Shown here one piece after another: positions 2,034 to 29,866 of a stretch of 57,570 nucleotides of DNA. The position numbers and the translations under genes are program-made. How positions within the stretch are numbered: position 1 is the stretch's first letter; the number at the start of each line of letters is the position of its first letter. The stretch spans positions 1 to 57,570 of the forward strand of contig DAOWLE010000022.1 in assembly GCA_030643545.1 (NCBI GenBank). The letters are read 5' to 3'. The stretch comes from a bacterium (GTDB lineage Bacteria > Patescibacteriota > Minisyncoccia > JAHIHE01 > DAOWLE01). The notes below the pieces were generated by a model that worked only from the letters and a program-made list of their open reading frames with translations, made no database searches and was not told the origin of the DNA.

Positions 2034-2077
2034 ATATGATCAGCGATTTAACTCGCGATCAATTGGAAAATTGTTTT

Positions 2078-2878: not shown

Positions 2879-2906
2879 AATTTAAACGCTGAATCTTTTT
2901 AATAAA

Positions 2907-3194
2907 TTATTTTCCGCCATATCTTTCTATTAAAACTTTTATATCTTTATCACATTCTGTATATGCTTCCCATATTTCTAAAGGAATGCCAGACTTATTA
3001 AGTTTAGGAACAACTTCATCATAAATTTCCGGCCCTTCTTTTAATAATTCCCCGAGCACGCTCGCCGCGCCTGGATGACCAGCACTTCTTTTTTTAATAT
3101 CTTCTTTATATTTTTCTTCTTGATTATCCGCATCAGCAATTTTTTCTATATCTAAACCTTTCATTGCTCCTAAATTTTCTATTCCTATTTCCAT
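2907..3194 (-). CDS. Hypothetical protein
   Basis: 95-aa ORF with AAAGGA upstream of the ATG. Confidence 0.6.
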   Translation of the reverse strand: MEIGIENLGAMKGLDIEKIADADNQEEKYKEDIKKRSAGHPGAASVLGELLKEGPEIYDEVVPKLNKSGIPLEIWEAYTECDKDIKVLIERYGGK

Positions 3195-3388
3195 AATATT
3201 GTCCTTTCTATTTTAAATTATGTTTTTATTATATTCGACCTCTGCTATTATAAAATACGCAAAATTTTTATAATGATATATAATAAATTCAATATGTAAA
3301 ATCATGCACTGGATTTCTTGAAAAGTGTCTCTGCTTAAGTTTATTTTACCATAATTGAAATTTTACGACAAATTCAGCGATTAAAAAA

Positions 3389-5558: not shown

Positions 5559-5561
5559 AGG

Positions 5562-5635
5562 TGGGCCATCCTGGATTTGAACCAGGGACATCGACCTTAT
5601 AAGGATCGCGCTCTAACCGACTGAGCTAATGGCCC
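5562..5635 (-). tRNA. tRNA-Ile (anticodon UAU)
   Basis: GGGCCAT/ATGGCCC acceptor stem, anticodon arm CGATC-CTTATAA-GGTCG, T arm CCTGG-TTCAAAT-CCAGG. Confidence 0.92.
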
Positions 5636-16777: not shown

Positions 16778-18636
16778 TAAAAAATAATAATCAAATCTCG
16801 AAAAATCTCTGGATTGCCGGAGGATATTATGTTGATTTTGATGAGATGAGCCAATTCAGAATTATCGGGCCAAATAATCATCTTTATTGCGGCTTAATTG
16901 ATATTCCGCGCCATAAGATAAAAATAGAAAGTATTAAGGATAAAAATAATATTTTAGAAATAAAAGGATATTTTCTCGGAAAAAATATTAATCTATATTA
17001 TCCGGCGATGGATGATATCAGAACTGTAAGAAATTTAACAAAAAATGCCTGTTCTTTTCTTGAAATCAGAAATCAGCATTTTAATCAAATGATTCCTAAG
17101 AAAATTCAATTTAAAGATACAAAAAACAGTTCATCAATTACTTTCAAACGGTCGTATGAAGAAAATTTATATTATCAAACAACTTTCAATTTTCCAAAAA
17201 ATATTCTGGTTGAAAAAATAAAAAAGCCGTTTAAGGGATTTAAAATTTCCGCAAAAACAGAAAATAAAATTAAATTTATTATTTTAGCGGAAACAAATGA
17301 TTTGCGCCAAAAAGAATTCAAGGATTTTTTTCTTTCAGGCACAAATTTTTTTGATTTTAAAAAATTTGGCAAGCATTCAAAAGCAGTAAAAAAAATTTGG
17401 CAGAGAACAGAAAAAGAAATTATTCATCTTATCAACTGGGGTAAAACTTCCGGCGATAATTTTGGAACAATTTTTCCCCGCGACTGGATGGAATCAGCGG
17501 ATTTAGGAATTCATGATTTGCGTCCGGAAATTATCAGTTATATGTATGAAGCGTCTTTAAAAAATGTCAATCAAAAAGGTGAGAGCTGGCATGAAGATGT
17601 TGTTGGAGAATATAAATATGAGCATGAAATTTCCGGCAAGGATATTTTAGACCGCCATATGATTGATATTGAACCGCATTATATTATCGGATTGAAAAAT
17701 TTGCCAAGCGATTTTTTAGTTGATAAAAAAAATAAAGAAAAGATGAAAAAAACGGCTGAATATTTAGTCAGGCAAGCGAGAAAAAATGATTTTATTATTT
17801 TTAAAAAACTTCCTAAAAATATTCAGAAAAAAGGCCAAAAATATTATTTTAGCGGCAATTGGCGGGATAGTGGCTGGGCGTTTAAAAAAATCAGCCAAGT
17901 AATCGCTCCTTTTGATGTAAATTGCGTTTTTTATCCGGAAGCGTTAAAAACATTAAAAAAATTCCAGAAAAAATTAGGTTTAAAAATAAAAGACATAAAT
18001 AAATTAATAAAAAAATGGGAAGGCAAAAAGAAATATTATTCTTTTAAAAATTCAGACGGAAAATCAGCTTACGCTTTAGCTGTTTACGGAATAGAAAATA
18101 AAAAAGGAAAAATAGAATATAAAAAAATGAAAGTTAATCATTTAGACGAATCATATCTTTTCACTTACAATGACGGAACACAAACAGATATAAAAAGTTT
18201 TTGCCAGCGTCTTTTAGATTCAAATTATTTTTATACGCCTTCCGGTCCAACGCTTATATCTAAAAATAATAAATACGGCTACACTTCTAACGAGTATCAC
18301 GGATTAGTTGTCTGGACAAAACAAACCGCTTTTGTTATTTTAGGATTAAGCAAATATTTAAAAAAAGCTATTGTTGAAGAATGGCCGAAAGATTTACAAA
18401 AATTAATTAAAAAAACGATTTTGACTATTTCTGAAGATACAATAAAAACTTTCGATTATTTAGATTATATTCCAGAAGTCCATTGGGACGACAACGGAAC
18501 TCCTTTGCTTTATTCTGATCAGCCGAATATGAAAATGTCCGTAAGCGAAGTCCAACTTTGGTCGGCTGTTGGCGCAAGAAGAATTATCAGAAAATATTAC
18601 GAATTGTTAACTGATCCAAAATATAAAAAAATATGA
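16759..18636 (+). CDS. Six-hairpin glycosidase, amylo-alpha-1,6-glucosidase/debranching-like
   Basis: TIFPRDWMES, NWRDS, PFDVN, YHGLVVW, QLWS. Confidence 0.65.
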   Translation: MAGKKLIKNNNQISKNLWIAGGYYVDFDEMSQFRIIGPNNHLYCGLIDIPRHKIKIESIKDKNNILEIKGYFLGKNINLYYPAMDDIRTVRNLTKNACSFLEIRNQHFNQMIPKKIQFKDTKNSSSITFKRSYEENLYYQTTFNFPKNILVEKIKKPFKGFKISAKTENKIKFIILAETNDLRQKEFKDFFLSGTNFFDFKKFGKHSKAVKKIWQRTEKEIIHLINWGKTSGDNFGTIFPRDWMESADLGIHDLRPEIISYMYEASLKNVNQKGESWHEDVVGEYKYEHEISGKDILDRHMIDIEPHYIIGLKNLPSDFLVDKKNKEKMKKTAEYLVRQARKNDFIIFKKLPKNIQKKGQKYYFSGNWRDSGWAFKKISQVIAPFDVNCVFYPEALKTLKKFQKKLGLKIKDINKLIKKWEGKKKYYSFKNSDGKSAYALAVYGIENKKGKIEYKKMKVNHLDESYLFTYNDGTQTDIKSFCQRLLDSNYFYTPSGPTLISKNNKYGYTSNEYHGLVVWTKQTAFVILGLSKYLKKAIVEEWPKDLQKLIKKTILTISEDTIKTFDYLDYIPEVHWDDNGTPLLYSDQPNMKMSVSEVQLWSAVGARRIIRKYYELLTDPKYKKI

Positions 18637-19622
18637 AACAAAATAAATCCATAATTGCTTTTGATATTGGCGCGAGTAAAATTGCCTACGGCGTTGCCGG
18701 CCTTCCGCTCTTGCCTGCCAGCAGGCAAGGTTCGGCTTCCAGTTTTCAACATTTCAATAAAATTAAAACTCCGAAGAGCAAAAAAGAAATTATTGAAAAA
18801 ATTATTGAAATTGTCGCACCCCTCCTTGATCCTCCCCTTGCGAATAAGGGGAGGAAGAATGCTTATGGGAAAATTATCGGCGTTGGAATTGGAATGGCCG
18901 GGCAAATGGATTTTAAAAAAGGGAAAGTTTTGTCTTCTTTGGTTGCGGATGGATGGAAAAATGTTCCTTTAAAAAATATTTTAGAGAAAAGATTGAAAAT
19001 TCCGGTTACGCTTGATAATGACGCTCATTGTTTTGTTTTGGGCGAAGTAAAATTCGGCGTGGCGAAAAATTATCAGCATATTGTTGGGCTAACCTTGGGA
19101 ACTGCTATTGGAGGCGGGATTATTATTGACGGCAAACTTTACCACGGAATGAATAACACTACTGGTGAATTTACTTATACTGTTGTTAATACAAATAAAG
19201 ATTTAGAAGTTCTTATTAAAGGAGCAAAAGACACTTGCAAAAAAACTGGTTGTTATCATTTAGGAGAGTGGGCGGCTGGCAAAGGAATGGAAAGATTATA
19301 TAAAAAATTGACCAGCAAGAATTTGGCCGCTTTTGAAATAAAAAAAAGAGCGCTCAAAGGAGAAAAAGCGGCTCTTAAAATAATTAATTTATCAGCTGAA
19401 TCCTTGGGGTGTGAAATAGCGAATATTATTAATTTTTTAAATCCGGAAATTATTGTCATCGGCGGCGGATTGAGCAAAATGGATATTCTTTGGAAACCGA
19501 TGATTCAGGAAGCAAAAAAAAGAGTTTTCTTCGCTCCTTTGAAAAAAACAAAAATAGTCCGTTCGCAATTATTAGAAAAAGCAAACCTTCTCGGCGCGGC
19601 AAGTTTGGTTTTAAAATCTTAA
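18633..19622 (+). CDS. ROK family sugar kinase with in-frame palindromic inserts
   Basis: FDIGASKI, GVGIGMAG, LDNDAHC, TLGTAIGGG, NPEIIVIGGG. Confidence 0.9.
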   Translation: MKQNKSIIAFDIGASKIAYGVAGLPLLPASRQGSASSFQHFNKIKTPKSKKEIIEKIIEIVAPLLDPPLANKGRKNAYGKIIGVGIGMAGQMDFKKGKVLSSLVADGWKNVPLKNILEKRLKIPVTLDNDAHCFVLGEVKFGVAKNYQHIVGLTLGTAIGGGIIIDGKLYHGMNNTTGEFTYTVVNTNKDLEVLIKGAKDTCKKTGCYHLGEWAAGKGMERLYKKLTSKNLAAFEIKKRALKGEKAALKIINLSAESLGCEIANIINFLNPEIIVIGGGLSKMDILWKPMIQEAKKRVFFAPLKKTKIVRSQLLEKANLLGAASLVLKS

Positions 19623-19651
19623 TATAGTAATACTATTTTAAAATCAACTGC

Positions 19652-19733
19652 TGTCATTCCCGCGCAGGAGAGAATCCACTATTAAAATAAGTGTTACTAT
19701 AAACATAGATTCCTGCCTCCGCAGGAATGACAG
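19652..19733. repeat. GTCATTCCC...GGAATGAC composite palindrome family
   Basis: TGTCATTCCCGCGCAGGAGAGAATCC...GATTCCTGCCTCCGCAGGAATGACA; other copies near 22687, 23227, 37572, 48376-48505. Confidence 0.75.
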
Positions 19734-19748
19734 ATTGAGAAAATTATC

Positions 19749-19794
19749 AAAACAAATAATCTCCTTACCGATCGGTAAGGAGATTATTTGTTTT
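19749..19794. repeat. 46-bp perfect palindrome; second partial copy at 20840-20860
   Basis: AAAACAAATAATCTCCTTACCGATCGGTAAGGAGATTATTTGTTTT. Confidence 0.85.
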
Positions 19795-20053
19795 CGGACT
19801 TGACATTTTTTCGGACTTATGATAATCTATAAAAACAAAATACAAAAAATAATTAAATGAAATTCAATTATTCCCCTCTTGCTGTGTCCCGTTTTTTTCG
19901 GGAAGAGGGATTAGGAGTGGATTTGCTCTTTTAAAATTAAATGAAGAATCTCTATGATTATTTGTTTTTTTTGAAACGAATGATTACAAGGATTCTTCAT
20001 AAAAGGAGGTAAAAAGAATCTCAAAAAAGGAGAATAAAAAGAAGTGACAAAAA

Positions 20054-20287
20054 ATGGTAGAAGAAAGTTTAGTAGATTTAACAGAAGCGAAAATATTGCG
20101 CGATGAGCATAATTTCAGAAAAGCAATGGAAACCACAGACAAGATTGAAAAAGATTTGGAAAAGAAATGGGAATTAGGGGACATAGAAGAATTTCTATAT
20201 CTTCTGGAAATATTGAGAATAGAAAATTTTAGAATATCTGTTTTGTTTAAAATGTTAATTGAAAAGAAAGCAAAAAGAGGTGAATAA
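20054..20287 (+). CDS. Hypothetical helical protein (SD-class)
   Basis: 77-aa ORF; purine-rich leader with AGGAGG and AAGTGA; promoter TTGACA(19800)-N17-TAATCT. Confidence 0.6.
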   Translation: MVEESLVDLTEAKILRDEHNFRKAMETTDKIEKDLEKKWELGDIEEFLYLLEILRIENFRISVLFKMLIEKKAKRGE

Positions 20288-20291
20288 AACA

Positions 20292-20744
20292 ATGAAAGCA
20301 TTAGAAGAAAAAACGGGAAAGAAAGTAGAAAGCGAGGATTCTGAATTGGCTCGGATAGGGGTATCACTGCCATCTAATCTGTTGAATAAGTTTGAGAAGA
20401 TAATTAGAGGGCGAGGATATTCATCAAGGTCTGAAGGGATAAGAGATGCGATTAGAGCATATATAATAGAACATGAGTGGATGGAGCGCGAATCCGGAGA
20501 AAAGATAGGAGTTATAGCCTATACCTACGACCATAGTCAAAGAGAATTACGGAGGAAACTGGAGGAAACAGAGAATGATTTCAAAGATATTATAGAAACA
20601 TCCAGCAGAGCTTTAGTAGATGATAAAACTGATTTCGCGACAGTGACAGTAAAGGGCGATGCCAAACAGATAAAAGAATTAGCAGAAAGAATAATGAGTC
20701 AAAGAGGAGTAAAGTATTTGAAATTAACGATAACTCGCATCTGA
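20292..20744 (+). CDS. nikR: NikR-family regulator of methanogen-like type, Ni ligands lost
   Basis: RHH domain RIGVSLP..LL.KF..II..RGYSSRSEGIRDAIR; YDH; GVKYLKLT; SD GAGGTGA. Confidence 0.88.
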   Translation: MKALEEKTGKKVESEDSELARIGVSLPSNLLNKFEKIIRGRGYSSRSEGIRDAIRAYIIEHEWMERESGEKIGVIAYTYDHSQRELRRKLEETENDFKDIIETSSRALVDDKTDFATVTVKGDAKQIKELAERIMSQRGVKYLKLTITRI

Positions 20745-20874
20745 AAAGAACAAAAAACTAAAAACTTAAGGGGAATAAATTCATTTTGAATGTCCCCTCT
20801 TTTTTTTGCTTAAATTTTAAAACAAAAACTTCTCCTTTACTTACCGATCGGTAAGGAGATTTAGTAATTGAGAA

Positions 20875-20996
20875 TTGACCCCGCCCTAACTCCAAAGCAC
20901 AACTTTCATTTAAAAATAACCAAAAGGCGAAGCCGCCTTGCGGCTCTGTCATTCTATCATAAAAAATATTGTGAAAGAATTAGGGCGGGGTTGACA
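20875..20996. repeat. TTGA-flanked inverted-repeat element abutting a -35 box (copy B)
   Basis: TTGA-CCCCGCCCTAA...TTAGGGCGGGG-TTGACA; interior homologous to copy C. Confidence 0.8.
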
Positions 20997-21096
20997 AATA
21001 TTTAAATACTTGATAAAGTTTGATTGATGGTAAAAAAAAAGAAGCCATCCAATAGAAACAAAAAAAATAATATTAAAAAATAAGAGGGTATGAAAG

Positions 21097-21300
21097 ATGG
21101 ATATAAAACCAATAAGAAAAATTTTGAAAGAACAAAGGAGAAAAGCAATATATGAAGGAGAGCGGCAAGAACTTTTACAATATGGTATAAATATTTTCTG
21201 TGAGCCGGATGGAAGAATTCATGGCGAAGATAACGAAGAGGGTAAAACTTTTGAAGGAATTGATGCAGTATTAGAAGAAATAAAAGCAAGGAGTGGGTAA
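21097..21300 (+). CDS. Hypothetical protein (SD-class)
   Basis: GAGGGT before ATG; promoter TTGACA(20991)-N17-TAAAGT. Confidence 0.6.
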   Translation: MDIKPIRKILKEQRRKAIYEGERQELLQYGINIFCEPDGRIHGEDNEEGKTFEGIDAVLEEIKARSG

Positions 21301-21318
21301 AAAAAGAGATGATGTGAA

Positions 21319-21720
21319 ATGAAAAAAGAAAAAATAGTAGCAATCGGTATCGTTGAAAAAGGAGGAAAGATATTATTAATCCGTCGTGTAATTCAAGAAG
21401 GAGATCTTCAATGGTGTTTTCCTGGTGGAGAAATAGAAACGAAAGATGGCACAGAACAAGAAGCAATAATTAGGGAAGTCAAGGAAGAAACAAATATTAA
21501 TTGTTTGCCAGTTAGCAAATTAGGAGAAAGAATACATCCCGATACAGAAAAAACCTTAACCTATTGGAGATGCACTTACAAAGACGGCAAACACGCTATA
21601 CAAGATCCAAAAGAAATAGCTGATATTTTATGGGCTTCACCTTCAGAAGTATTTAAATTGATCACTACTGATATTTTCCCGCCCGTTAAACTCCTCTTGG
21701 AAGAAATCTTAGCGAAATAA
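21319..21720 (+). CDS. NUDIX hydrolase, MutT-like (SD-class)
   Basis: WCFPGGEIE...EAIIREVKEETN Nudix box; GATGATGTGAAATG RBS. Confidence 0.9.
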   Translation: MKKEKIVAIGIVEKGGKILLIRRVIQEGDLQWCFPGGEIETKDGTEQEAIIREVKEETNINCLPVSKLGERIHPDTEKTLTYWRCTYKDGKHAIQDPKEIADILWASPSEVFKLITTDIFPPVKLLLEEILAK

Positions 21721-21804
21721 ATCAAAACTCAAAATCATTTAAAACTAAAGGAGTTTAAGAAATCAACGATTTCTAATTATGCTCCTTCTTTTTTTATCTA
21801 AATT

Positions 21805-23493
21805 TCAACAAGTTTTATTTATCCTACAACTTGCCAATAAAAGCCCGGCAATAAGCCAAAAAGTTAGTTGTCCTTGCTGAATTGTCCAGAAATAATGGTC
21901 AAAAAAGCCAATAAATAAAAATCCTAAGAAAATTACTGAAATAAATCCAGTACATAAATTTATGTGCTGGGTAAAAATTGTTTCACGTGAAACAATTTGA
22001 TTTCTTCCCTTTAAATAAGCCATTTTTAGTATTTTAAAAATGAAAAAGATAAATAAAATCAATCCAATTATGCCAATTTCCGCGGCAATTAATAAATAAA
22101 AATTATGAACCGGCTGGTATTGCCAGGATTCTAAAGAAGACCCCTGTTTCTCCCCCTTGATAAGGAGGAGATTAAGAGGGGGTATTTTTTCCTTATTAAA
22201 GGGGAAAAAATTATCATAATTTAAAACAAAATTTCCCATTCCTACGCCCAAAAATGGGCTTTTTTTAATCATTTCAAAAGAAAAGGAATTAAATAAAAAA
22301 CGATCGCTGATTGCTTGATCATTTTTATTTAATTCAAATCGCGTGGAAATTTGTGGGGAAAGTATAATTGAAAAACAAGAAATAATAAGAATTATAATTA
22401 TCAAAGAAGTGAATTTTCGTTTAAATAAAGCAAAAATTGGAATTGTTTCATGTGAAACATTTTTATAATAAAGAAAAATAAAGCAAAAAAGAGAAAATAG
22501 GCCAGCCAACCACGCGGTTCTTGAAAAAGTAAGAATAAAAGCCAAAAATTGTATGCTAATTAAAGCAATTAAAAGCAAAAATTGCCAATTTTGTTTTAAA
22601 AATTGTTTAAATAAAGAAATCCCCCTAACCCCCTTTAAAAAGGGGGAAACAGAAGGCGACATTCCGGAATGTCGCCTTCGGAAAATTGTCATTCCCAATT
22701 TGATTGGAAATCCAGAATCTGAAGGCGATACGACGTCGTGTCGCCTTTTTATGTAAAAAAACAAAAAATAAAAACTAATAAATAAACTCATCAACAAAAA
22801 TCCGGCTAAAACATTTGGGTGTGGAAAAGTTCCATAAACGCGGATGATTTTTTCTCCATCAACGACAATTTTTGCCACTCCAGCTAAATCAGGGGATAAA
22901 ATCGGTTCTCCAAGCCATTTTAAACCTAAATTACTTTGTTTATAATATTGTGCGACACTAATTATTGCCTGTGTAAAACCTGTGGATAAGATGAGAATAA
23001 AGCAGAAATAAAGCTTTTTTAAGCTGTTAATAAGTTTTCCAGCAAGGATAAATAGTAAAACAAATTCAAATAATTTTAAAACTTGATAAGTCCCCACTAT
23101 ATTGTTTTTCGCTGAAAATATGCTTAAAACAGCGCAAATTAGGAAAAAGAATAGAATATAATAAATAATGTTTTGTTTTAGAGACATTTTTAAAGATTGT
23201 GCCGACAGAAAAATCCTCCTTAAAATTGTCATTCTCAACCTGCCTACCGGACAGACAGGTTTGATTGGGAATCCAGATTTTTTTACCTGTCTTAAAATCC
23301 AAAAAAATAAAGCTAAAATAAAAAAAATATCCGATAAATAAAGGAAAAAAGTTGTATAATGGACAAAAGCGCCGGTAAAATAAGAATCTTTTGACAAAAA
23401 TACCAATTTAGTTCCCAGTGGAATGGATAAAATAAAAAAATAGAAAAAAGTTAAGTCAAGATTATTTGAGATTTTTTTAAAAATTGATCGCAT
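21805..23493 (-). CDS. O-antigen ligase family membrane protein with several in-frame repeat inserts
   Basis: RVYGTFPHPNVLAGF, TFSRTAW, GVGMGNF, QPVHNFYLLIAAEIG, FFDHYFWT. Confidence 0.88.
   Translation of the reverse strand: MRSIFKKISNNLDLTFFYFFILSIPLGTKLVFLSKDSYFTGAFVHYTTFFLYLSDIFFILALFFWILRQVKKSGFPIKPVCPVGRLRMTILRRIFLSAQSLKMSLKQNIIYYILFFFLICAVLSIFSAKNNIVGTYQVLKLFEFVLLFILAGKLINSLKKLYFCFILILSTGFTQAIISVAQYYKQSNLGLKWLGEPILSPDLAGVAKIVVDGEKIIRVYGTFPHPNVLAGFLLMSLFISFYFLFFYIKRRHDVVSPSDSGFPIKLGMTIFRRRHSGMSPSVSPFLKGVRGISLFKQFLKQNWQFLLLIALISIQFLAFILTFSRTAWLAGLFSLFCFIFLYYKNVSHETIPIFALFKRKFTSLIIIILIISCFSIILSPQISTRFELNKNDQAISDRFLFNSFSFEMIKKSPFLGVGMGNFVLNYDNFFPFNKEKIPPLNLLLIKGEKQGSSLESWQYQPVHNFYLLIAAEIGIIGLILFIFFIFKILKMAYLKGRNQIVSRETIFTQHINLCTGFISVIFLGFLFIGFFDHYFWTIQQGQLTFWLIAGLLLASCRINKTC
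21979..21994. promoter_or_regulatory. parS centromere site, perfect consensus
   Basis: TGTTTCACGTGAAACA; parAB about 8 kb away, oriC about 14-15 kb away. Confidence 0.9.
22444..22459. promoter_or_regulatory. parS site with one mismatch
   Basis: TGTTTCATGTGAAACA. Confidence 0.85.
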
Positions 23494-23624
23494 ATTTTGA
23501 TAATTTTAATCTACACACTTTTATTATACTCAAAAAATCAGTTTTTTGCCAGAAAAAAAAGAACCAAGATGTATTTTACAACTTGGCTTTTAATTTGATT
23601 TATTTTTTTTCAAATCGATTTCTT

Positions 23625-24293
23625 TCAAATCGATCCGAATGCTCTATCTCCAGCATCGCCTAATCCAGGAACAATATAGCCATCACTATTCAATACGGGA
23701 TCAATTGAAACTGTGACGATAATAGTATCTGGATACGCTTTTCTAATTTTATCTATGCCAATTTTTGTTGAAATTATAGACAGAAGAATTATTTTTTTCG
23801 GTTTTTGCTTTCCTTCTGTTATATATTTCATAATTTCTAAAAGCGTACTTCCGGTCGCAAGCATTGGATCAGCGATTATTACTACGTCTTCGTCTGTAAT
23901 CTCTGGGAATTTGGCATAATTAATTTCAATATCAAAAGAATCGTTCTTCATTCCTTTTTCTTCTTTTCTTCTGGCGCTAATTACTCCTTGTTTTGCGTGC
24001 GGAAATGCTTTAAGAAGTCCTTCAACAAAAGGAGACGCTGCTCTTAAAACATTGATTATCACTATTTTCTCTTTATCAACAACAGCAACTCCCATACATT
24101 TACCTAATGGTGTTTCAATTTCTATTTCTTCTGTATTTAAAAGCTCCATCGATTCATATCCACCAATTCGCCCCATTTTGACAACGCTTTTTCTAAAACC
24201 AACCTGTTGAGTTTTTTTATCCCTTATCGTTGTTAATGCATCGCGCGCGACAACACTTCCAATAATCCATACCTTTTCTTCTACTTCTTTCAT
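23625..24293 (-). CDS. upp: Uracil phosphoribosyltransferase, euryarchaeal-type
   Basis: IETPLG, VIINVLRAASPFVEGLLKAFPHAKQGVISA, IADPMLATGST, YIVPGLGDAGDRAFG. Confidence 0.93.
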   Translation of the reverse strand: MKEVEEKVWIIGSVVARDALTTIRDKKTQQVGFRKSVVKMGRIGGYESMELLNTEEIEIETPLGKCMGVAVVDKEKIVIINVLRAASPFVEGLLKAFPHAKQGVISARRKEEKGMKNDSFDIEINYAKFPEITDEDVVIIADPMLATGSTLLEIMKYITEGKQKPKKIILLSIISTKIGIDKIRKAYPDTIIVTVSIDPVLNSDGYIVPGLGDAGDRAFGSI

Positions 24294-25291
24294 TCTCTAT
24301 CCTCCTTATAAAAATATCCAAATTCCCCGCCCTTTTTTAGATTCTCTTCGGCAGTTAGAAAACAACTCCAGTAACATCCAGGACAATCTGTTTCTTCTCT
24401 CTCTTTTTTCCAATCTTTTTTGAATTCTTCAAATCTTTCTTTGTTCATTTCAAGTATATTGTATTTCTTGGATACTTCTCCTCTAATATCATTGCAAAGC
24501 ATAAAAACTCCATCTGCGTCAATCCGCAATTGCGCGAGTTCACTGCATCTCCAGTTGCTGCGTATCCCGTATTTTGACATATTTACAAGGTAGGAATCAG
24601 GCATCGCTATTTTGCAACCTTCGTGTTTCATTTGCAATAATTTTATCACGACATTATTGATTTCCGGTCTATCTGCGTCTGTAAGTCTAAATTCGTCAGA
24701 AACATTCGCTCTAAATTCCCAATCATTTCCTTTTCCGCAAACAACAGGACATAAATTAACCCATATGCCATTGTCTGATAATGCTTTTACAATTTCAGGT
24801 ATGTCTTGCAGATTTTTCTTGGAAATAACTACGTTCGCGCCAAGAAGTTTTATTCCTCCTCGTTTAAACTCCATAAGTTTCTTAAACCCGGCTTGCGATT
24901 TTGCGCTCCCGTCTTCATCTAAAGCTTTTACATCGCCGACACTATCAACACTAGCAAAATATCCCTGAATTCCAGCGCTTATCAAACTTTCTGTTTTATC
25001 ATCGCCGAACATAGAATTAGACAAAACAGCGTATTTTATTGAAGTTTCCTTATTTATAAATCTGATTAAATCTTCAAAACCTTCTATAATAGTCGGTTCG
25101 CCGCCTAAAATTTTTACTGTTTTTATTCCTATTTTTTCTAAGTTCATAAACGCTTTTTCCCATTCATTGATACTCAATTCTTTTTTAAGCTGTTTTTTAA
25201 CAAGGTTACAGTACCCACAGTGTAAATTACATCCTCTCGTCAAAAAAATCTGGCATTCTGTAATTTTTTTTCCTATTTTTCCTTTTCCCAT
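24290..25291 (-). CDS. Radical SAM protein with C-terminal Cys-rich (SPASM/twitch-like) region
   Basis: CNLHCGYC, LGGEPT, C...IDADGVFMLCND...CPGCYWSC; SD GGGGTGA; ATGA overlap with upp. Confidence 0.88.
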   Translation of the reverse strand: MGKGKIGKKITECQIFLTRGCNLHCGYCNLVKKQLKKELSINEWEKAFMNLEKIGIKTVKILGGEPTIIEGFEDLIRFINKETSIKYAVLSNSMFGDDKTESLISAGIQGYFASVDSVGDVKALDEDGSAKSQAGFKKLMEFKRGGIKLLGANVVISKKNLQDIPEIVKALSDNGIWVNLCPVVCGKGNDWEFRANVSDEFRLTDADRPEINNVVIKLLQMKHEGCKIAMPDSYLVNMSKYGIRSNWRCSELAQLRIDADGVFMLCNDIRGEVSKKYNILEMNKERFEEFKKDWKKEREETDCPGCYWSCFLTAEENLKKGGEFGYFYKEDRE

Positions 25292-25452
25292 TTTTTCTCA
25301 CCCCTTTTTTCCTAAATTGTTTAATGTGCCGTCTTTGAAAATAACGTATCTTTAAAATCAACCTACCATAAATTAAAAATTCTGTCAAAAAAAGAAGCCA
25401 TCCGAAAATGACTTTTTACTTTATTTGTTTTGAAAAAAAAATAAAATCCCTT

Positions 25453-25902
25453 TTATTTTTTCTTTATAACATCAAACTCCTTCATTATCTCTTTTCTTTT
25501 TGCGACTTTTTTTTCTAGACTGTTATTTGACAAATTTATCTTTCCTTGCAACCACTGTAACTGAGGCAAATGTTTTTCTAATGCAATTGACAAAGCCGCT
25601 ATTGCCGTTGCTTTTCTGTTTTTATCTGACTTATTTAACTTTATTTCCCCCTCTTTTTCTCGCCTTTCAAATTCATTCCCTATATCAATGGCTACTCTTT
25701 TAATATTGTCTTTTGGATCAAATCTTTCCAAGATACCAGAAATATTGTTTCTCATTATTATTTCATCTACCAGTTCTTCCATTGTTTTCGCGTTTCTTTT
25801 TGCCACTTTCCCTGTTTCTTCTTGTTGTGAATATCTTAATAACTCCTTACATTTCATCTTTGCAATATTGGATATCTCAATTAACTTTTTTTCTTCTCCC
25901 AT
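25453..25902 (-). CDS. Hypothetical protein, possible single cyclin-fold (TFB-core-like) repeat
   Basis: IKRVAIDI...KATAIAALSIA resembles TFB cyclin helices; own promoter TTGACA(25979-25974)-N17-TAATCT and SD GGGGGT. Confidence 0.55.
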   Translation of the reverse strand: MGEEKKLIEISNIAKMKCKELLRYSQQEETGKVAKRNAKTMEELVDEIIMRNNISGILERFDPKDNIKRVAIDIGNEFERREKEGEIKLNKSDKNRKATAIAALSIALEKHLPQLQWLQGKINLSNNSLEKKVAKRKEIMKEFDVIKKK

Positions 25903-26003
25903 TTTTTTTAATTCTACCCCCCCTAATTATTAGCGTTCATCTTTAAAGTTAGATTACCGCAAAATAAAAAAAATGTCAACTTTGTTTTGTATTTTTTTAA
26001 AAA

Positions 26004-26124
26004 TTGACCCCGTTCCAATCCTAAAGCATAACTTTCGTTTAAGATAAACAAAAGGCGAAGCCGCCTTACGGCTCTATAATTCTATTACAATAAATCTTGC
26101 GATAGAATTGGAATGGGGTTGACA
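26004..26124. repeat. TTGA-flanked inverted-repeat element abutting a -35 box (copy C)
   Basis: TTGA-CCCCGTTCCAAT...ATTGGAATGGGG-TTGACA. Confidence 0.8.
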
Positions 26125-26235
26125 AAATCCGCTTGCCTTGTTATAAATACAATACCTGACAATAATTTATGATGGGTGATGATTTCAGCACCTTGAAAAT
26201 TAGAAGGAGGAATAAAAAAGGGAGGTAAATAAAAA
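26119..26235 (+). promoter_or_regulatory. Promoter and leader shared with the TFB gene
   Basis: TTGACA-N17-TATAAA with extended -10 TG; GCACCTTGAAAA; double SD AGAAGGAGG / GGGAGGT. Confidence 0.8.
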
Positions 26236-26976
26236 ATGGATATTGTAGATGCATTAAGATTTGTTAAAAGAATTAGCGTAGGTCGATCTTGGATAGAAGA
26301 AAACAGAGGTAAATTATATCTTTTAGGGATAGACCCAAAAAATGTTCTTGCTTATAATATTAAAATAGACAGTGAATGTATTGAAAAAGAAACAAGCAAG
26401 AAAATTCATGGAAAATTAAATTTTTCTGGAGCAAATGTTTTTTGGGACAAGACGATTCCAAGAGAAAAAGCGTCATCAGTGATAATCAGACCGAAAGAAA
26501 TTATTATTATATGGAATAATAACGGATTGAAAGCAGAAAAAACAATTTATATAATGCCAGATAAACAACCCGGGATAAATAAAAAAAATATAGGGAAAAT
26601 AAAAAGGATGCTGCCTAAACCAGTAAAAACAACCATTGATATAAAGAAACTTAAAAAGATACTAAGATTTATAAATCAAAACTGGAAAGTAAGAATAGAA
26701 GGAAAAGAAAATATCTGCAACATTGTTTTCCAAGAAGTTTTCTCGCGCTGGGATTATATAGAAAATGACCGCATAGAAATAGAAAAAGATACGATAAAAC
26801 TAATATGTCAAACTGGCGATATAAACGGAAAAATTAGTATAAAATATACATATCTACAAAAAATAGCGCCGCTGTTATCGGATCCTTTGCGTTTAGCGAT
26901 AAAAACAGAGATGCCACTATACATAGCGACAAAAACAGGAGCAGAATTTTTAATAGCACCTCTTTATAACTTTTAA
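26236..26976 (+). CDS. Divergent archaeal-type DNA sliding clamp (PCNA-like)
   Basis: 246 aa (PCNA length); GIDPKNVLAY compares with AVDPANVAMV; C-terminal YL..I...L.L....EMPL.I.....AEFLIAP. Confidence 0.65.
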   Translation: MDIVDALRFVKRISVGRSWIEENRGKLYLLGIDPKNVLAYNIKIDSECIEKETSKKIHGKLNFSGANVFWDKTIPREKASSVIIRPKEIIIIWNNNGLKAEKTIYIMPDKQPGINKKNIGKIKRMLPKPVKTTIDIKKLKKILRFINQNWKVRIEGKENICNIVFQEVFSRWDYIENDRIEIEKDTIKLICQTGDINGKISIKYTYLQKIAPLLSDPLRLAIKTEMPLYIATKTGAEFLIAPLYNF

Positions 26977-27006
26977 GGACTATATTTAAATAGTCCTCTT
27001 TTTTTA
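26977..27006 (+). terminator. Intrinsic terminator after the PCNA-like gene
   Basis: GGACTAT-ATTTAA-ATAGTCC-TCTTTTTTT. Confidence 0.75.
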
Positions 27007-27031
27007 TTCAAATTAAAACAAAAATAAAAGA

Positions 27032-27145
27032 TTGACCCCGTTCCTAATTTCATAAGACGGTATAATACAAAAAAAGGGCCCAGAGCAACTTCGAATAGTT
27101 GGATTGTAACAGACGGTATTGCGAAATTAGGAAACGGGATTGACA
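27032..27145. repeat. TTGA-flanked inverted-repeat element abutting a -35 box (copy D)
   Basis: TTGA-CCCCGTTCCTAATTTC...GAAATTAGGAAACGGGA-TTGACA. Confidence 0.8.
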
Positions 27146-27262
27146 AAATCTGCCTGTCTTGCTATAAATACAATATCTGACAATAATTTAATGATAGGTG
27201 ATTGTAATTTAGCACCTTGAAAATTAGAAGGAGGGAAAACAAAAAAGGGAGGTAAAAAAATA
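27140..27262 (+). promoter_or_regulatory. Promoter and leader, paralog of 26119-26235
   Basis: TTGACA-N17-TATAAA; TGACAATAATTTA; AGCACCTTGAAAATTAGAAGGAGG; GGGAGGTAAA. Confidence 0.8.
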
Positions 27263-28201
27263 ATGGATAAAAAGAGAATGGGCAGAAAGACAACAGAAAA
27301 GACAGAAAGAGAATATCCCAGAAAATGTCTAGAATGCGGTTCTAAAAATATAGTAACTGGAAATGGAGAAACTTATTGCGCTGACTGCGGATTAGTAATA
27401 ATAGAGAACATTATAGATCTTGGTTCTGAATGGAGCGCGTATGATTCTGAACAAGCAACAAAAAGAATAAGAGTAGGCCCGCCGATGACTTATAGAATAA
27501 ATGATAAAGGATTAAAAGTTCCTATTGAGAAATTTTTAAAAGGAAAAGAAGGACATGCAGGAATAAATACAACAAAGGAACAAAGCTTTATTTTTGCGCT
27601 TTCTCAAATAGAACGAATGTCAAGCGCGCTTAGATTGCCAGAAAATATTAGAGAAGCCGCATCATTATTATACAGAAAAGCAATGCGTAAAAAGTTAATT
27701 AAGGGACGAAGCATAGAAGCCATAACTTCGGCAATTCTTTATATTGTTTGCAGACAATATGGAATACCTCGAACACTTGAAGAGATAAAACAAGTATCAT
27801 GGGAGAATAAAGAGAAAAAAATATATAAAGCTGTAAATCTTCTCTTACGAAAACTTGAACTAAAAATTCCGCCTGCTTCTCCTGTGGACTTTGTACCTCG
27901 CTTTTGTTCTCTACTTGAGTTAAATAAAGAAACAGAGTCAATAGCGTTAGAAATAGCAGGAAAAATAGAATTAAACAATAATGGACAATTACCAACAGGA
28001 GTGACAGCCGGAGCTATTTATATCGCGGCAGCATTAAATGATGATGAGTATCGCGCAAAAAAAGAAATAGCTGAAATCACAGGCGTATCTATTCCTACAA
28101 TCTTTGATAGATCCAAGGAAATATCAAAACAATTAGGCATAGATATGCCTGAAACTAAAAATAGAAAAAGAAGGACAAAAAACTCCTTCTCTTTTTTTTA
28201 A
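27263..28201 (+). CDS. tfb: Archaeal transcription initiation factor IIB (TFB), divergent
   Basis: Zn ribbon CLEC...CADCGLVI; IDLGSEW..YD..Q..KR.RVG.PMTY...DKGL; two cyclin repeats (GRSIE, YIVCRQ..IPRTLEEI, VPRFCS, PTGV.A.AIYIA). Confidence 0.95.
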   Translation: MDKKRMGRKTTEKTEREYPRKCLECGSKNIVTGNGETYCADCGLVIIENIIDLGSEWSAYDSEQATKRIRVGPPMTYRINDKGLKVPIEKFLKGKEGHAGINTTKEQSFIFALSQIERMSSALRLPENIREAASLLYRKAMRKKLIKGRSIEAITSAILYIVCRQYGIPRTLEEIKQVSWENKEKKIYKAVNLLLRKLELKIPPASPVDFVPRFCSLLELNKETESIALEIAGKIELNNNGQLPTGVTAGAIYIAAALNDDEYRAKKEIAEITGVSIPTIFDRSKEISKQLGIDMPETKNRKRRTKNSFSFF

Positions 28202-28242
28202 TTAGAATAAAAAAAAAGACCTCATTTAGAATAATTTATTTT

Positions 28243-28740
28243 TTATCCCATCGTCCTCCTAAAACTCTCTTTCAAATTAGAAACAATATCAAAGTTTTTT
28301 AATTCTTTTGGATCAATCCATTTATATTCCAAATGCTCCCAGTCCAATTTTATCTCGCATTTGTTTTTTAATTTACATAAAACAGGAACAATAATCCAAG
28401 TTTTATTTATTTCAGAATCTATAAATTTATACGATTCCCTGATTTGAATTGATAAAATATTTTCTTTGCTGATTTTTGTCTCTTCCTGAATTTCTTCCAA
28501 CGCTTTTTCCTGAATCGGCTTTACTTCATCAAGATAACCGGCAACCACATTCCATTTTCCCTGATAAGTCCGAACCTTATCGCTTCTTTTCAACAAAAGA
28601 ATTTCGTTTTTGTATTTTATAAAAACAATTATCACTGGCGCGATGTTTGAATTTGAATAATCAATCCTGCCGTCAGAAAACTTCGGCAATTTTTCCGAAA
28701 AATTTTTGATGGTATTTAAAATTTTTTGTTCTGAATTCAT
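28243..28740 (-). CDS. NUDIX hydrolase
   Basis: LLLKRS...GKWNVVAG...ALEEIQEET, LDWEH; likely start MNSEQK. Confidence 0.85.
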   Translation of the reverse strand: MNSEQKILNTIKNFSEKLPKFSDGRIDYSNSNIAPVIIVFIKYKNEILLLKRSDKVRTYQGKWNVVAGYLDEVKPIQEKALEEIQEETKISKENILSIQIRESYKFIDSEINKTWIIVPVLCKLKNKCEIKLDWEHLEYKWIDPKELKNFDIVSNLKESFRRTMG

Positions 28741-28757
28741 AATATTAAAAATTATCT

Positions 28758-29771
28758 TCACCGGCAGAAGCAAAACCAAACTATTAAAAGCAATAAAATC
28801 GTTCTCAAGAGAAAAAATATTTTTAAAATAATCCGATGTTTGTCAGCCCGCAAAATTGCGTACCAGTTCATCGCGTTGACAAACAAAAAAGACCGTAAGC
28901 AGAATTTTAATATTTTCCATCTGTTAAATTTTTTGGACTGCTCTTGCCAATTATATTTTAACTGAATCGCTTCTTTGGCAAAATTAAAATTGAATAATTT
29001 TTGATAACCAAAATTCAAAATCAAATCCATTTCCATCATTCCCCAGAAATTATGCTTATATCCGATTCCTTGCTTAATTTCTTTTTCAACTTCTTCAGTT
29101 GCTTTATTAATTCCTTTGCCAATCGGTTTATCTAAGAAAAATAAAATTGACTCAACAGAATAAATTGCCGCTTTGTCAGACATTTTTAAAGCGATTTTCG
29201 GAAAAAGCAAAGCGCCTAAAACAGAGCAAAAGGAAATATGATAAGGAATTAAAAGCGCTTTTGATTTTTCCCACCAGCTTGGCTTGATGTGAATAATTTT
29301 TCTAATGTCCCGTCCATACAAAATTTTCCCTTCATATTTCATTTTTTGGAAAAGCATTGCCTGTGAAGCAACTAATTTCGCTCCCAAAATTAAATCTCTT
29401 CTTTTTATTTTTCCATTCGTCCAATCAATATCTCCCGGCCCAAAAATTTCAAAAGGCACATAAAGTTTTGTTTTTTCAATTATTTTTTTAATTTTATCTT
29501 TTTTTCCTCCAATAGAACAGGACTCTTCAAATTTTGTCCCGTGTTTTGCGTCTAATTCCCAAAATATTTTATTTGAAAATTCTTTCGCGTTTTCAACCGC
29601 TTCTATTTTTTTCATCTGGATAATCAAGTCCACATCGCTTATTCCTTTCTTCCATTCGCCTCTTGCCGCGCTTCCAAAAAGAAGAATAAAATCCAAATCA
29701 TCGCTGAATTTTTCAGCCAACTTTTGGCAAAATTCTCTTAAAAAATTTTGAACTAATTGCTGGTTTTCCAT
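28758..29771 (-). CDS. Nucleotidyltransferase-domain (Pol-beta/MNT-like) protein
   Basis: ILLFGSAARGE....SDVDL. Confidence 0.8.
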   Translation of the reverse strand: MENQQLVQNFLREFCQKLAEKFSDDLDFILLFGSAARGEWKKGISDVDLIIQMKKIEAVENAKEFSNKIFWELDAKHGTKFEESCSIGGKKDKIKKIIEKTKLYVPFEIFGPGDIDWTNGKIKRRDLILGAKLVASQAMLFQKMKYEGKILYGRDIRKIIHIKPSWWEKSKALLIPYHISFCSVLGALLFPKIALKMSDKAAIYSVESILFFLDKPIGKGINKATEEVEKEIKQGIGYKHNFWGMMEMDLILNFGYQKLFNFNFAKEAIQLKYNWQEQSKKFNRWKILKFCLRSFLFVNAMNWYAILRADKHRIILKIFFLLRTILLLLIVWFCFCR

Positions 29772-29866
29772 AATAAATTATTTTAAATTTAAAAACACTT
29801 ATATTTTTATTTTATCAAACTTATGTCCTGTTGCCAATTAAAAAAAATAAAACTATAATATAGATA

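Follow-up and report, generated by a model that had tools for sequence, protein, structure and literature searches.

ANME-1-derived TFB and NikR homologues in the chromosome of a cold-seep Patescibacterium: putative host-directed effectors

Archaeal viruses such as Sulfolobales viruses YNP1/YNP2, Halorubrum tailed viruses and Metallosphaera rod-shaped virus 1 carry a TFB, and nine archaeal-virus records with annotated TFB genes provide a precedent for a parasite that possesses the general initiation factor of its host. Those carriers replicate inside the archaeon, whereas the gene described here belongs to a cellular organism, a bacterium equipped with a bacterial transcription system. Intracellular bacteria, for example Legionella, keep host-derived eukaryote-like effector proteins, and by analogy the present locus may also represent a symbiont that keeps host-lineage genes in which the parts that bind the target are conserved while regulatory parts have changed; here, however, the presumed host is an archaeon and the target would be its basal transcription machinery. 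In Minisyncoccus archaeiphilus and related methanogen parasites (PMC12281837, PMC10936435), as far as the available portions of these papers describe them, a Patescibacterium is likewise associated with a methane-cycle archaeon, and one named relative of the TFB studied here is labelled Minisyncoccales. Their partners are Methanospirillum and Methanothrix in bioreactors, whereas the partner indicated here is ANME-1, from cold seeps and vents; neither TFB/TFIIB nor effectors nor ANME is mentioned in the available portions of PMC10936435 and PMC13293708.

The window analysed, a stretch of 57,570 nucleotides, belongs to the small genome (845 kb, 95 % complete) of a cold-seep bacterium, and the few named relatives of the proteins of this genome are labelled Minisyncoccales or Parcubacteria. 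The genome under study is denoted G000, and a congener from another assembly G001. The window is bacterial chromosome close to the replication origin and includes a variable gene island. An earlier note had placed four archaeal-type genes, of which three are confirmed and one is not supported, in a bacterial chromosome with a clamp of its own and with parS in an O-antigen ligase gene near parAB, and this chromosomal setting is borne out by the following features, together with MurJ and DnaA, which are also encoded in the window.

1017-1412: tmRNA, a bacterial marker
21319-21720, + strand: Nudix hydrolase gene, with no match in the syntenic contig of G001
21805-23493, - strand: resident Wzy_C / O-antigen-ligase-type membrane protein gene
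28243-29771, - strand: resident Nudix and nucleotidyltransferase (NTase) genes, 87 % identical to G001 (BLAST)
29867-30646, + strand: ParA
30673-31545, + strand: ParB
37771-38877: dnaN, in the same window as TFB, NikR and Upp

The Wzy_C gene contains a perfect parS (21979-21994), the only one in the genome, as well as a copy with one mismatch (22444-22459), where 0.02 would be expected by chance. On one 9.7-kb contig of G001 the gene order is g16759-ROK-NikR-Wzy-x-TFB-Nudix-NTase, and a DHO_dh-like gene replaces the Upp, radical SAM, orf149 and orphan genes of G000. Two genes are central to the present analysis.

27263-28201, + strand: TFB/TFIIB homologue, 312 aa, with Zn ribbon, B-reader and two cyclin repeats
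20292-20744, + strand: NikR homologue, 150 aa (listed ORF 20259-20744)
20342-20548, + strand: ribbon-helix-helix DNA-binding segment of nikR, exchanged with ANME-1

The TFB had been regarded as a clear one, and Pfam agrees (TFIIB repeat, 98.2 bits in two stretches; TFIIB Zn ribbon, 45.3 bits), with an NCBIfam score below the cut-off (266.6 vs 384) and a match to PHROG 20431 at 161 bits. In the TFB tree the window clade (10 sequences, support 99) is sister (82) to an ANME-1 TFB clade (100), both being nested in an ANME-1 group (99), and a further tree agrees, which places the origin of the protein within ANME-1 archaea and upholds the earlier claim of archaeal capture. Over species genomes, identity is highest for G001 (62 %), followed by ANME-1 (54-59 %) and other names from 49 %. 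Viral TFB proteins are 24.5-30.6 % identical and the viral contigs searched held no close relative, so that the source is a cellular ANME-1 TFB and not a virus. The ancestor of the genus already had TFB, and the gene is found in 5 of 61 relatives. Bacterial context was verified for G000, G001 and G002, in the last of which the copy sits among RNase III, TrmD and SMC genes; the other members of the TFB clade are metagenome proteins. P0083, a TFB labelled Minisyncoccales, is nested in another ANME-1 clade, and the phylogeny supports repeated capture, TFB having been acquired more than once in this order.

The four Zn-ribbon cysteines (C22, C25, C39 and C42) are invariant in 13 of 13 members of the TFB clade. 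In the alignment, the counterpart of the BRE-contacting helix carries changes (P278, F281), both residues aligned to human TFIIB V283 and R286 being replaced. Between G000 and G001, a single genome pair with short regions, TFB shows an omega of 0.45 at dS 0.52, and four resident genes show 0.04-0.29 at dS 0.44-0.58; within TFB, omega is 0.21 for Zn ribbon plus B-reader, 0.42-0.54 for the cyclin repeats and 1.4 over the 17 codons of the B-linker. Judged from these alignments, the Zn ribbon and B-reader are kept most strictly, the B-linker is fast-changing and the BRE-aligned residues are substituted. The gene is intact and under purifying selection, its omega not being near 1. This omega clearly exceeds those of the neighbouring genes and can be explained by relaxed constraint as readily as by adaptation, an observation which counts against effector use. 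Since the conserved basic C-terminal tail is a terminator hairpin read as codons, it gives no evidence of a secretion signal.

The likely start of nikR is the ATG at 20292, preceded by AAAGAGGTG. Its product had been described as a methanogen-like NikR; the assignment to NikR stands (NCBIfam PRK01002 156.9, cut-off 111; Pfam NikR_C 77 bits and RHH_1 37.4 bits; Pyrococcus horikoshii PDB 2bj1, E = 7.4e-26), but ANME-1-like is the better description, the best named matches being Methanophagales at 63-66 %. With canonical NikR (E. coli; P. horikoshii 2bj1) it shares the ribbon-helix-helix and the NikR_C tetramerisation fold. Canonical NikR has four high-affinity Ni ligands, which follow the pattern H..HxH..C in 2bj1 and are His76', His87, His89 and Cys95 in E. 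coli, according to the accessible part of the published description, whereas all four are replaced here (N95, R106, L108 and D114). The same columns are altered in the three other aligned clade sequences, that of G001 among them. The protein is thus predicted to be nickel-blind while keeping a host-type DNA-binding domain, and omega is 0.20-0.32 in its N- and C-domains, indicating purifying selection on an intact gene. For TFB and NikR alike, the earlier claim that intact frames carry changes at functional sites holds.

The DNA of the nikR N-domain matches 59 of 68 ANME-1-order species genomes, with 86-91 % nucleotide identity in seven of them. Its pS is 0.15-0.32 to those seven and at least 0.56 to the other five ANME-1 compared, while that of the C-domain to G065 is 0.85; among codons for the same residue, 48/57 are identical in the N-domain and 10/27 in the C-domain. 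Because the remainder outside the DNA-binding domain is saturated, nikR is a mosaic. In the DNA tree G000 and G001 together are sister to the seven-species subclade and nested in ANME-1, which points firmly to derivation from ANME-1 archaea and to an exchange of the DNA-binding part with one ANME-1 subclade about as recent as the split between G000 and G001. The strand of the ribbon-helix-helix is invariant in all 17 aligned NikRs, so that matching the host requires no selection. The exchange is a flow of DNA, and uptake of host DNA with recombination would also yield it, which likewise counts against effector use.

Both genes lie in small transcription units among repeats and hairpins.

19749-19794, no strand: 46-nt perfect palindrome (100 % complementary) that bounds the NikR unit on the left, a hairpin resembling a terminator for both directions
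19800-19828, + strand: promoter-like site for the NikR unit, with TTGACA, a 17-nt spacer and TAATCT after a TG (consensus match only)
20825-20861, no strand: terminator hairpin closing the NikR unit on the right, core common with 19749-19794
20868-20998, + strand: copy of dispersed hairpin repeat family A, whose end gives the TTGACA of the orf67/Nudix unit
25997-26126, + strand: second window copy of family A
26112-26235, + strand: orphan promoter and leader of about 90 nt (TTGACA 26119-26124, 17 nt, TATAAA)
27030-27140, + strand: copy of dispersed hairpin repeat family B
27133-27262, + strand: TFB promoter and leader (TTGACA 27140-27145, 17 nt, TATAAA)
28169-28190, + strand: terminator stem-loop, also coding the last TFB residues RRTKNSFSFF

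The description of these units as having promoter, ribosome-binding site and terminator stood in part. Exact TTGACA-N17 boxes occur at 19800, 20991, 26119 and 27140, GGAGG-type ribosome sites are present and terminator-like hairpins are in excess (20 vs 6.1 +/- 2.7 expected); however, taken together, promoter-like sites are no more frequent than chance predicts (52 vs 40.7 +/- 7.2 expected), and three of the four boxes are ends of a dispersed repeat.

The remaining genes of the island are of a different kind.

23625-24293, - strand: archaeal-type uracil phosphoribosyltransferase (Upp), TIGR01091 220 (cut-off 208.35)
24290-25291, - strand: radical SAM protein, which shares 4 bases with the start of upp
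25453-25902, - strand: 149-aa ORF of no family
26236-26976, + strand: 246-aa orphan protein, earlier called PCNA-like

Among 1.84 billion representatives the orphan has a single homologue, from a record named Parcubacteria, and it has no sequence match in Pfam, NCBIfam, PHROG or PDB. Its reading as a PCNA finds no support in sequence or profile, hhalign against 30 archaeal PCNAs giving a probability of 2 % (control 100 %), and PCNA_N was not found in the genome even at E <= 10; the suggested reprogramming of host replication loses its support with it. The promoter and leader of the orphan are 85 % identical to those of TFB and are found nowhere else in the genome, and for this reason the two are probably co-expressed. 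Upp is archaeal-type, as stated before, its best relatives being 66-75 % identical and the sole named one an archaeon, but a role as an effector is not supported, Upp being an intact salvage enzyme that is not ANME-1-derived. It occurs only in this genome among 61 relatives, it was not found in ANME-1 (0/61), and the radical SAM protein has generic matches only (20-27 %, in 5 ANME-1 genomes). Since Upp does not come from ANME-1, the island is not a one-host cassette; together with the radical SAM gene, Upp most likely supports pyrimidine salvage in the bacterium itself.

For TFB and NikR, which their phylogenies identify as captures from ANME-1, we tentatively propose, with confidence just short of even, that the bacterium uses them as host-directed effectors. 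The bacterium would live on ANME-1 cells, and both proteins would act on the machinery of the host, not on its own. TFB might act as a decoy or competitor, engaging archaeal RNA polymerase, TBP-DNA or both but failing to recognise or open promoters in the normal way. NikR might occupy the NikR operators of the host irrespective of nickel, or enter the host's NikR tetramers as a poison subunit. A delivery route would be needed, for example a genome-encoded type IV secretion ATPase system, and the VirB4-like gene of G000 is a possible one. Within the accessible portions of the literature, 2,417 of 3,035 Patescibacteria assemblies are reported to carry VirB4; in those portions no Patescibacterium is on record as passing a protein into an archaeon, which counts against the proposal.

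Rather unlikely, yet to be taken seriously, is that TFB and NikR regulate the bacterium's own genes, the ANME-1-like segment of nikR being a by-product of uptake. The promoters, ribosome sites and terminators of both genes are bacterial in type, the genus keeps both vertically (the dS of TFB equals that of its neighbours), NikR is a repressor in bacteria too (the family profile also matches E. coli and Caulobacter controls) and the lost Ni ligands are consistent with a protein that binds another ligand or none. Moreover, a second, core-only TFB paralogue adjoins a bacterial RND-type transporter gene, and the cyclin-repeat helix-turn-helix of the short TFB paralogue also scores against sigma-70 region 4. 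The Zn ribbon and B-reader, however, form the module that contacts archaeal or eukaryotic RNA polymerase, so that the most constrained part of TFB is polymerase-contacting, and the genome-wide search called for in the earlier note found no TBP, Rpb5/RpoH or RFC in this 95 %-complete genome. Repeated capture also argues against such a domestic role, as does the search for an operator in the bacterium's genome, from which no motif was derived.

It is distinctly improbable that both are functionless passengers, left behind by frequent DNA uptake from abundant ANME-1 neighbours and now neutral or in slow decay. The variable island, the lost functional residues of NikR, the elevated omega of TFB and ANME-1 DNA more than 100 times as abundant as the bacterium's in the samples would suit this explanation, but frames are intact in G000, G001 and the 11 further clade proteins listed, omega is well under 1 in TFB and both NikR domains, the Zn-ribbon cysteines are invariant, and the genes are fully ameliorated within a streamlined genome (GC3 0.21 for TFB, 0.23 for Upp and 0.33 for NikR, residents 0.26-0.38).

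An artefact, in which archaeal DNA was misjoined to a bacterial contig in assembly or binning, is scarcely credible, for although the source sample is very rich in ANME-1, with which a stretch of 204 nt is shared at ~90 % identity, and independent contigs end at the repeats flanking the NikR unit on both sides, the separately assembled G001 keeps the gene order, GC3 resembles the rest of the genome, the longest exact run in common with the seven closest ANME-1 nikR alleles is 29 nt (none >=31 nt), and the contigs of an independent assembler tile 18607-29983, except for 22645-22906 and 24183-24396, at an even depth of 7.6-13.2 (8.9 for the NikR piece, against 1672 for the ANME-1 allele), connecting Wzy with Upp, radical SAM with the orphan, and TFB with the resident Nudix/NTase genes. 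The chimera of which the earlier note had warned is thereby excluded.

ANME-1 with the same nikR allele dominates the same cold-seep and vent samples (depth 411-3217 vs ~10), its allele contigs being deep in 4 of the 4 runs examined, from three studies (X1 1672, X2 1309-3217, X3 1262, X4 411). At their loose ends these contigs match the nikR flanks of G065/G116 and G115 letter for letter. Recent DNA exchange and co-occurrence together strongly indicate an archaeal partner for the bacterium, and the findings point to a previously unknown partnership between a bacterium and an archaeon, possibly involving manipulation of the host.

The earlier note's claim that archaeal genes had been captured into this bacterial chromosome is borne out, apart from the PCNA-like protein, and for TFB and NikR the donor can be narrowed to ANME-1 archaea. 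The genome comprises 845,155 bases in 45 contigs (95.2% complete, 2% contaminated), the window being contig C32. The window is itself bacterial, with a tmRNA gene (1017-1412) and genes for ParA, ParB, MurJ, DnaA and DnaN (all three domains), which place the dnaA-dnaN origin region about 8 kb from the stretch 19749-28210. It also holds a tRNA-Ile gene with anticodon TAT (5560-5635), an uncommon bacterial means of reading ATA.

Features of 19749-28210 (genes from reading frames and family scans; repeats from blastn)
20292-20744, NikR homologue
20868-20998 and 25997-26126, family A hairpin repeat, about 18 copies on 14 contigs of the genome
21319-21720, Nudix gene
21805-23493, Wzy_C/O-antigen-ligase-type gene
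23625-24293, Upp
24290-25291, radical SAM gene
25453-25902, 149-residue reading frame, no family
26236-26976, 246-residue reading frame, no family
27030-27140, family B hairpin repeat, about 11 copies in the genome
27263-28201, TFB

Beyond TFB lie resident genes for a Nudix protein and a nucleotidyltransferase, with parAB after them, and the ligase gene carries a perfect parS site (21979-21994), the sole one in the genome, with a one-mismatch copy at 22444-22459; the reported position beside parS/parAB is thus correct. The small transcription units are likewise present, with TTGACA and a 17-nt spacer before NikR, the orf67-Nudix pair, the 246-residue frame and TFB. Terminator-like hairpins are about threefold enriched (20 against 6.1 ± 2.7 by chance); promoter-like matches as a class are not (52 against 40.7 ± 7.2). 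Three of the four TTGACA boxes belong to dispersed hairpin repeats of 115-135 nt, whose ends they form; the repeats make up two families scattered over many contigs and fold far better than shuffled sequences (z of -7.0, -4.7 and -3.5). Each repeat has GGGGTTGACAAA at its end, which gives the following gene its -35 box. The promoter and roughly 90-nt leader of the 246-residue frame (26112-26235) and of TFB (27133-27262) are 85% identical, and the shared stretch includes two GGAGG boxes. No further copy occurs in the genome. The stretch is also missing upstream of TFB in G001, a congener genome with a syntenic contig, which speaks against a conserved regulatory RNA; the pair reflects either local duplication or co-regulation. 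Two bins of the window (19314-19720 and 22570-22976) reach depths of 42-595 in all four metagenome runs compared with the region, against 8-13 elsewhere, and carry short repeats widespread in these metagenomes, one beside the ligase gene and the other within its coding frame.

The identification of TFB was confirmed by a Zn ribbon (PF08271, 45.3 bits) and two stretches of PF00382 (98.2 bits), and residues 104-296 align to the Pyrococcus woesei TFB core (1d3u/1ais); the protein scores 266.6 bits, below the curated NCBIfam cut-off of 384 for archaeal TFB (PRK00423). Amongst 441 relatives, the 11 closest are metagenome proteins at 62-76% identity, followed at about 56% by proteins named ANME-1, Methanophagales or Methanospirareceae; one relative at 54% is named Minisyncoccales bacterium. 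When one genome per species is ranked, the G001 contig comes first (62%), then ANME-1 (54-59%), with other names from 49%. In a tree with named archaea, the TFB of the window belongs to a clade of 10 rows (support 99) whose sister group (82) is one of two ANME-1 clades (100), and the ANME-1 group including the window clade is separated, with support 99, from Methanobacteria, Thermoplasmatota, Archaeoglobi and Methanofastidiosa; a second tree agrees. The phylogeny thereby upholds an archaeal donor and narrows it to ANME-1.

TFIIB repeats occur in five of 61 related genomes and in five of the 32 genomes of the order. The TFB of G002, another genome of this order, stands in a bacterial context amongst RNase III, TrmD and SMC genes and sits on a long branch at another point of the ANME-1 group, while the Minisyncoccales TFB is nested in the other ANME-1 clade. 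TFB uptake thus happened more than once in bacteria of the order. G016, a 1.9-Mb genome of the same order, has a 358-residue TFB (locus L019, C11:16500-36499) that groups with non-ANME archaeal TFBs on a contig of 44% GC, with no bacterial hallmark amongst the scanned neighbours; either a further capture or a binning error could account for it. A metagenome scan returned 45 TFB loci, all at 55% identity or less, three of them with 33-37% GC, and close members of the window clade were absent from these loci. A viral route was rejected, as no relative was found on viral contigs and identity in nine phage or virus records is 24.5-30.6%. A second TFB paralogue of 203 residues lies in the same genome (C18:6610-7221, L021) and in G001 (C47, L017:2453-3058); it consists of two cyclin repeats only, lacking the Zn ribbon and B-reader, lies downstream of an RND-type transporter gene, and finds its best matches among the loci compared, at 38-40% identity, in Thermoplasmatota-labelled TFBs.

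NikR was also correctly recognised, with a ribbon-helix-helix domain (PF01402, 37.4 bits), NikR_C (PF08753, 77 bits) and a family score of 156.9 against a cut-off of 111 (NF002169); the family scores above this cut-off in two of 61 related genomes, this one and G001. The earlier description of it as methanogen-like holds as to archaeal origin, and the donor is sharpened to ANME-1, the best named relatives being Methanophagales at 63-66% identity. At the DNA level, on the evidence of its codons, nikR is a mosaic gene. Its N-terminal segment is 90% identical in the ANME-1 species genome G065, and 59 of 68 genomes of the ANME-1 order match it, seven of them at 86-91%, a further three at 81% and the remainder at 69-83%. 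The proportion of synonymous differences in this N-terminal part is 0.15-0.32 against the seven and 0.30 against G001, but at least 0.56 against the other five ANME-1 genomes compared, and in the C-terminal part it rises to 0.85 against G065. Correspondingly, same-residue codons shared with G065 are identical at 48 of 57 N-terminal positions versus 10 of 27 C-terminal ones, whereas two ANME-1 species (G064 and G065) diverge evenly along nikR (0.66 and 0.77). In the DNA tree of the segment, the two bacterial sequences form a pair (92) whose sister is the seven-species subclade (81), both together falling within ANME-1 (90). The graded similarity across ANME-1 shows that the segment is native to ANME-1 and moved into the bacterium, and since its synonymous distance does not exceed that of resident genes between the congeners (dS 0.44-0.58), the exchange is dated to about their split or later. 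A comparative search for a NikR operator was given up because nikR lies directly behind its upstream gene in 12 ANME-1 loci, leaving no comparable promoter region.

The four runs, X1-X4 from three studies, contain abundant contigs (depths 1672, 1309-3217, 1262 and 411) that match 20345-20548 only, at about 90% identity, and continue unlike the window at both ends. Their loose ends are letter-identical to the nikR flanks of the ANME-1 genomes G065 and G116 (X1) and G115 (X2), which makes donor-type ANME-1 the dominant carrier of nikR in these cold-seep and vent samples. In the other runs, relatives of the bacterium occur at 88-99% identity. No RNA run was listed as carrying the stretch. The co-occurrence with ANME that had been proposed as a check is therefore seen in all of X1-X4.

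Both captured regulators are altered at functional sites, as had been supposed. Nickel ligands of Escherichia coli NikR, as published accounts give them, are His87, His89 and Cys95 together with His76 of the neighbouring chain. Archaeal NikRs including that of Pyrococcus horikoshii share the same pattern (H-x10-H-x-H-x5-C), whereas alignment places N95, R106, L108 and D114 at these positions in the window protein, none of the four high-affinity ligands being kept; they are also missing in the three other clade rows aligned, one of which is the G001 protein. The ribbon-helix-helix domain, in contrast, differs little from that of ANME-1, sharing 59 of 68 residues with G065, and its strand is invariant in 17 of 17 aligned NikRs. 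In TFB the Zn-ribbon cysteines C22, C25, C39 and C42 do not vary among all 13 clade members. At the positions of V283 and R286 of human TFIIB, BRE contacts of the C-terminal helix-turn-helix, TFB has P278 and F281, so that neither residue is conserved in the alignment. In the TFB subclade the ANME-1 motif TEVTIRNRYKE is replaced by SIPTIFDRSKE. A terminator stem-loop and T run (28169-28201) is in frame with the last ten codons of TFB (RRTKNSFSFF), so the conservation of this tail in the clade may be of DNA and not of protein, and the basic tail was dropped as a secretion signal. A shortened B-linker was likewise dropped as a special feature of the clade, the sister ANME-1 clade having equal linker length.

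Between the two congeners, both NikR domains are under purifying selection (omega 0.20 and 0.32), and TFB, with a dS equal to that of its neighbours (0.52), has an omega of 0.45 against 0.04-0.29 in four resident genes. By region, omega is 0.21 in the Zn ribbon and B-reader, 0.54 and 0.42 in the cyclin repeats and 1.4 in the B-linker (17 aligned codons), values that come from one genome pair and short stretches. Archaeal partner proteins were sought in the genome, as the earlier note had advised, and TBP, Rpb5/RpoH and RFC are all absent from this 95% complete assembly, each search being positive in four archaeal controls. A TFE-like match was set aside as sub-threshold (20.9 against 22.9 bits) and not archaeal-specific, being a winged-helix reading frame beside DNA ligase.

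The two other proteins to which an archaeal origin had been ascribed fared differently. Upp is of archaeal type as stated: it scores 220 over residues 11-220 against an equivalog cut-off of 208.35 (TIGR01091), its closest relatives are 66-75% identical with a 'Methanosarcinales archaeon' (70%) as the sole named one, and the next tier (at most 58%) is followed by haloarchaea, with no bacterial name among the 120 relatives listed. An origin in ANME-1 was rejected: no protein match was found in 61 genomes of the ANME-1 order or in the five of that set reached through their TFB loci, nor any DNA match. The query is found in three of 61 related genomes, a close copy occurring in this genome only. 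To judge from these homologues, Upp is an archaeal-type enzyme acquired by this species alone from a donor outside ANME-1, and is most simply a putative salvage enzyme of a bacterium relying on imported bases. In G001, the slot taken here by Upp, the radical SAM gene and the two frames without family holds a dihydroorotate-dehydrogenase-like gene (L016:5301-6239; PF01180, 93.5 bits), and the variable slot thus carries a pyrimidine-metabolism gene in both genomes. The radical SAM gene, which overlaps Upp, found only generic matches of 20-27% in five of five ANME-1 genomes and was not accepted as ANME-1-derived, and the 149-residue frame was rejected as a cyclin-repeat fragment (hhalign probability 0.2%).

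The PCNA-like clamp could not be upheld. Sequence, family and profile-profile comparisons all leave this assignment of the 246-residue protein without support: searches of Pfam, NCBIfam, PHROGs and PDB sequences gave no match, no internal two-domain repeat is present, and hhalign with 30 archaeal PCNAs yields a probability of 2%, the control of two PCNAs against 28 reaching 100%. PCNA_N (PF00705) goes unmatched throughout the genome even at E ≤ 10. The protein occurs in one of 61 related genomes, its own, and has a single homologue (36% identity) among 1.84 billion representatives, a cluster mate of which is named Candidatus Parcubacteria bacterium.

The capture from ANME-1, the long residence, the recent DNA exchange and the co-occurrence, all of which the data demonstrate, strongly suggest that the bacterium lives on ANME-1. 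That the captured regulators are directed at the host is the leading reading, plausible at somewhat less than even odds. The Zn ribbon and B-reader module of TFB/TFIIB reaches into archaeal RNA polymerase, and the main argument for effectors is that this most tightly constrained part of TFB would address an enzyme absent from the bacterium. Further arguments are the repeated capture of TFB in the order, the TFB genes that archaeal viruses also carry, and the combination in NikR of a host-type DNA-binding domain with a seemingly dead sensor. If TFB binds polymerase or TBP-DNA while its linker and promoter-contact regions are altered, it would be a competitor of the host's own TFB; NikR, blind to nickel, could sit on operators of the host or act as a poison subunit in its tetramers. 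The fuller scenario can be put forward only tentatively: an episymbiotic or parasitic Patescibacterium would deliver rewired TFB and NikR into ANME-1, hijacking archaeal transcription and nickel supply, and repeated recombination would keep the DNA-binding part of nikR matched to the host allele. A VirB4-like ATPase gene is the sole hint of type IV secretion found in the genome. VirB4-type systems are described, in the published accounts surveyed, as common in Patescibacteria and, for one class, as indispensable to epibiotic growth; the same body of literature contains no precedent for such protein transfer into a host.

Some findings weigh against action on the host. The nikR exchange would follow just as well if the bacterium took up host DNA, the ribbon-helix-helix strand does not vary among the 17 aligned NikRs, so that a match to the host calls for no selection, and the raised omega of TFB also fits relaxed constraint. 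Domestication of the captured regulators for internal use is an alternative to which we give limited though real weight. That these genes are functionless passengers seems improbable; the dN/dS check proposed for decay gave 0.45 for TFB and 0.20 and 0.32 for the NikR domains.

An assembly artefact, in which archaeal DNA was mis-joined to a bacterial contig, is scarcely credible, and the chimera check revealed no sign of such a join. One 9.7-kb contig of G001 has the same order of genes (g16759, ROK, NikR, Wzy, one other gene, TFB, Nudix, nucleotidyltransferase). In X1, which may be the source sample, contigs of an independent assembler tile 18607-29983 at depth 7.6-13.2, leaving 22645-22906 and 24183-24396 uncovered between the listed pieces; they break at repeats only and have no differences from the window in seven of the eight pieces listed. 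Single pieces link Wzy with Upp (22907-24182), the radical SAM gene with the 246-residue frame (24397-27132), and TFB with the resident Nudix and nucleotidyltransferase genes (27104-29262). GC3 is 0.21 in TFB, 0.23 in Upp and 0.33 in NikR against 0.26-0.38 in the neighbours; 42 of the 45 archaeal-like TFB loci have 40-58% GC. For nikR, no exact match to any of the seven closest ANME-1 alleles is longer than 29 nt, which together with its own depth of 8.9 excludes a mis-join.

Amongst known systems, the closest analogue is the TFB that archaeal viruses themselves carry (nine records), the closest principle that of host-mimic effectors of intracellular bacteria, and the closest organisms the methanogen-parasitising Minisyncoccales. 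The passages of the literature surveyed hold no report of a link between Patescibacteria and ANME-1, nor of TFB/TFIIB in Patescibacteria; supplementary tables such as those of PMC12455944 (HGT) and PMC10936435 (genes) might list such cases.

The nikR segment records a recent exchange of DNA that links one bacterial genus with a single ANME-1 subclade, dominant in the samples they share, and points to a candidate host of this uncultured bacterium. Much of the methane rising through marine sediments is consumed by ANME-1 archaea, and we know of no bacterial parasite or episymbiont of them. Should TFB and NikR act on the host, effectors that mimic host proteins would be a principle valid for archaeal as well as eukaryotic hosts, TFB would become the first bacterial effector directed against the basal transcription machinery of archaea, and natural inhibitors or modulators of archaeal transcription initiation would be at hand. 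Even if they act inside the bacterium, an archaeal general initiation factor under selection there would be a striking re-use.
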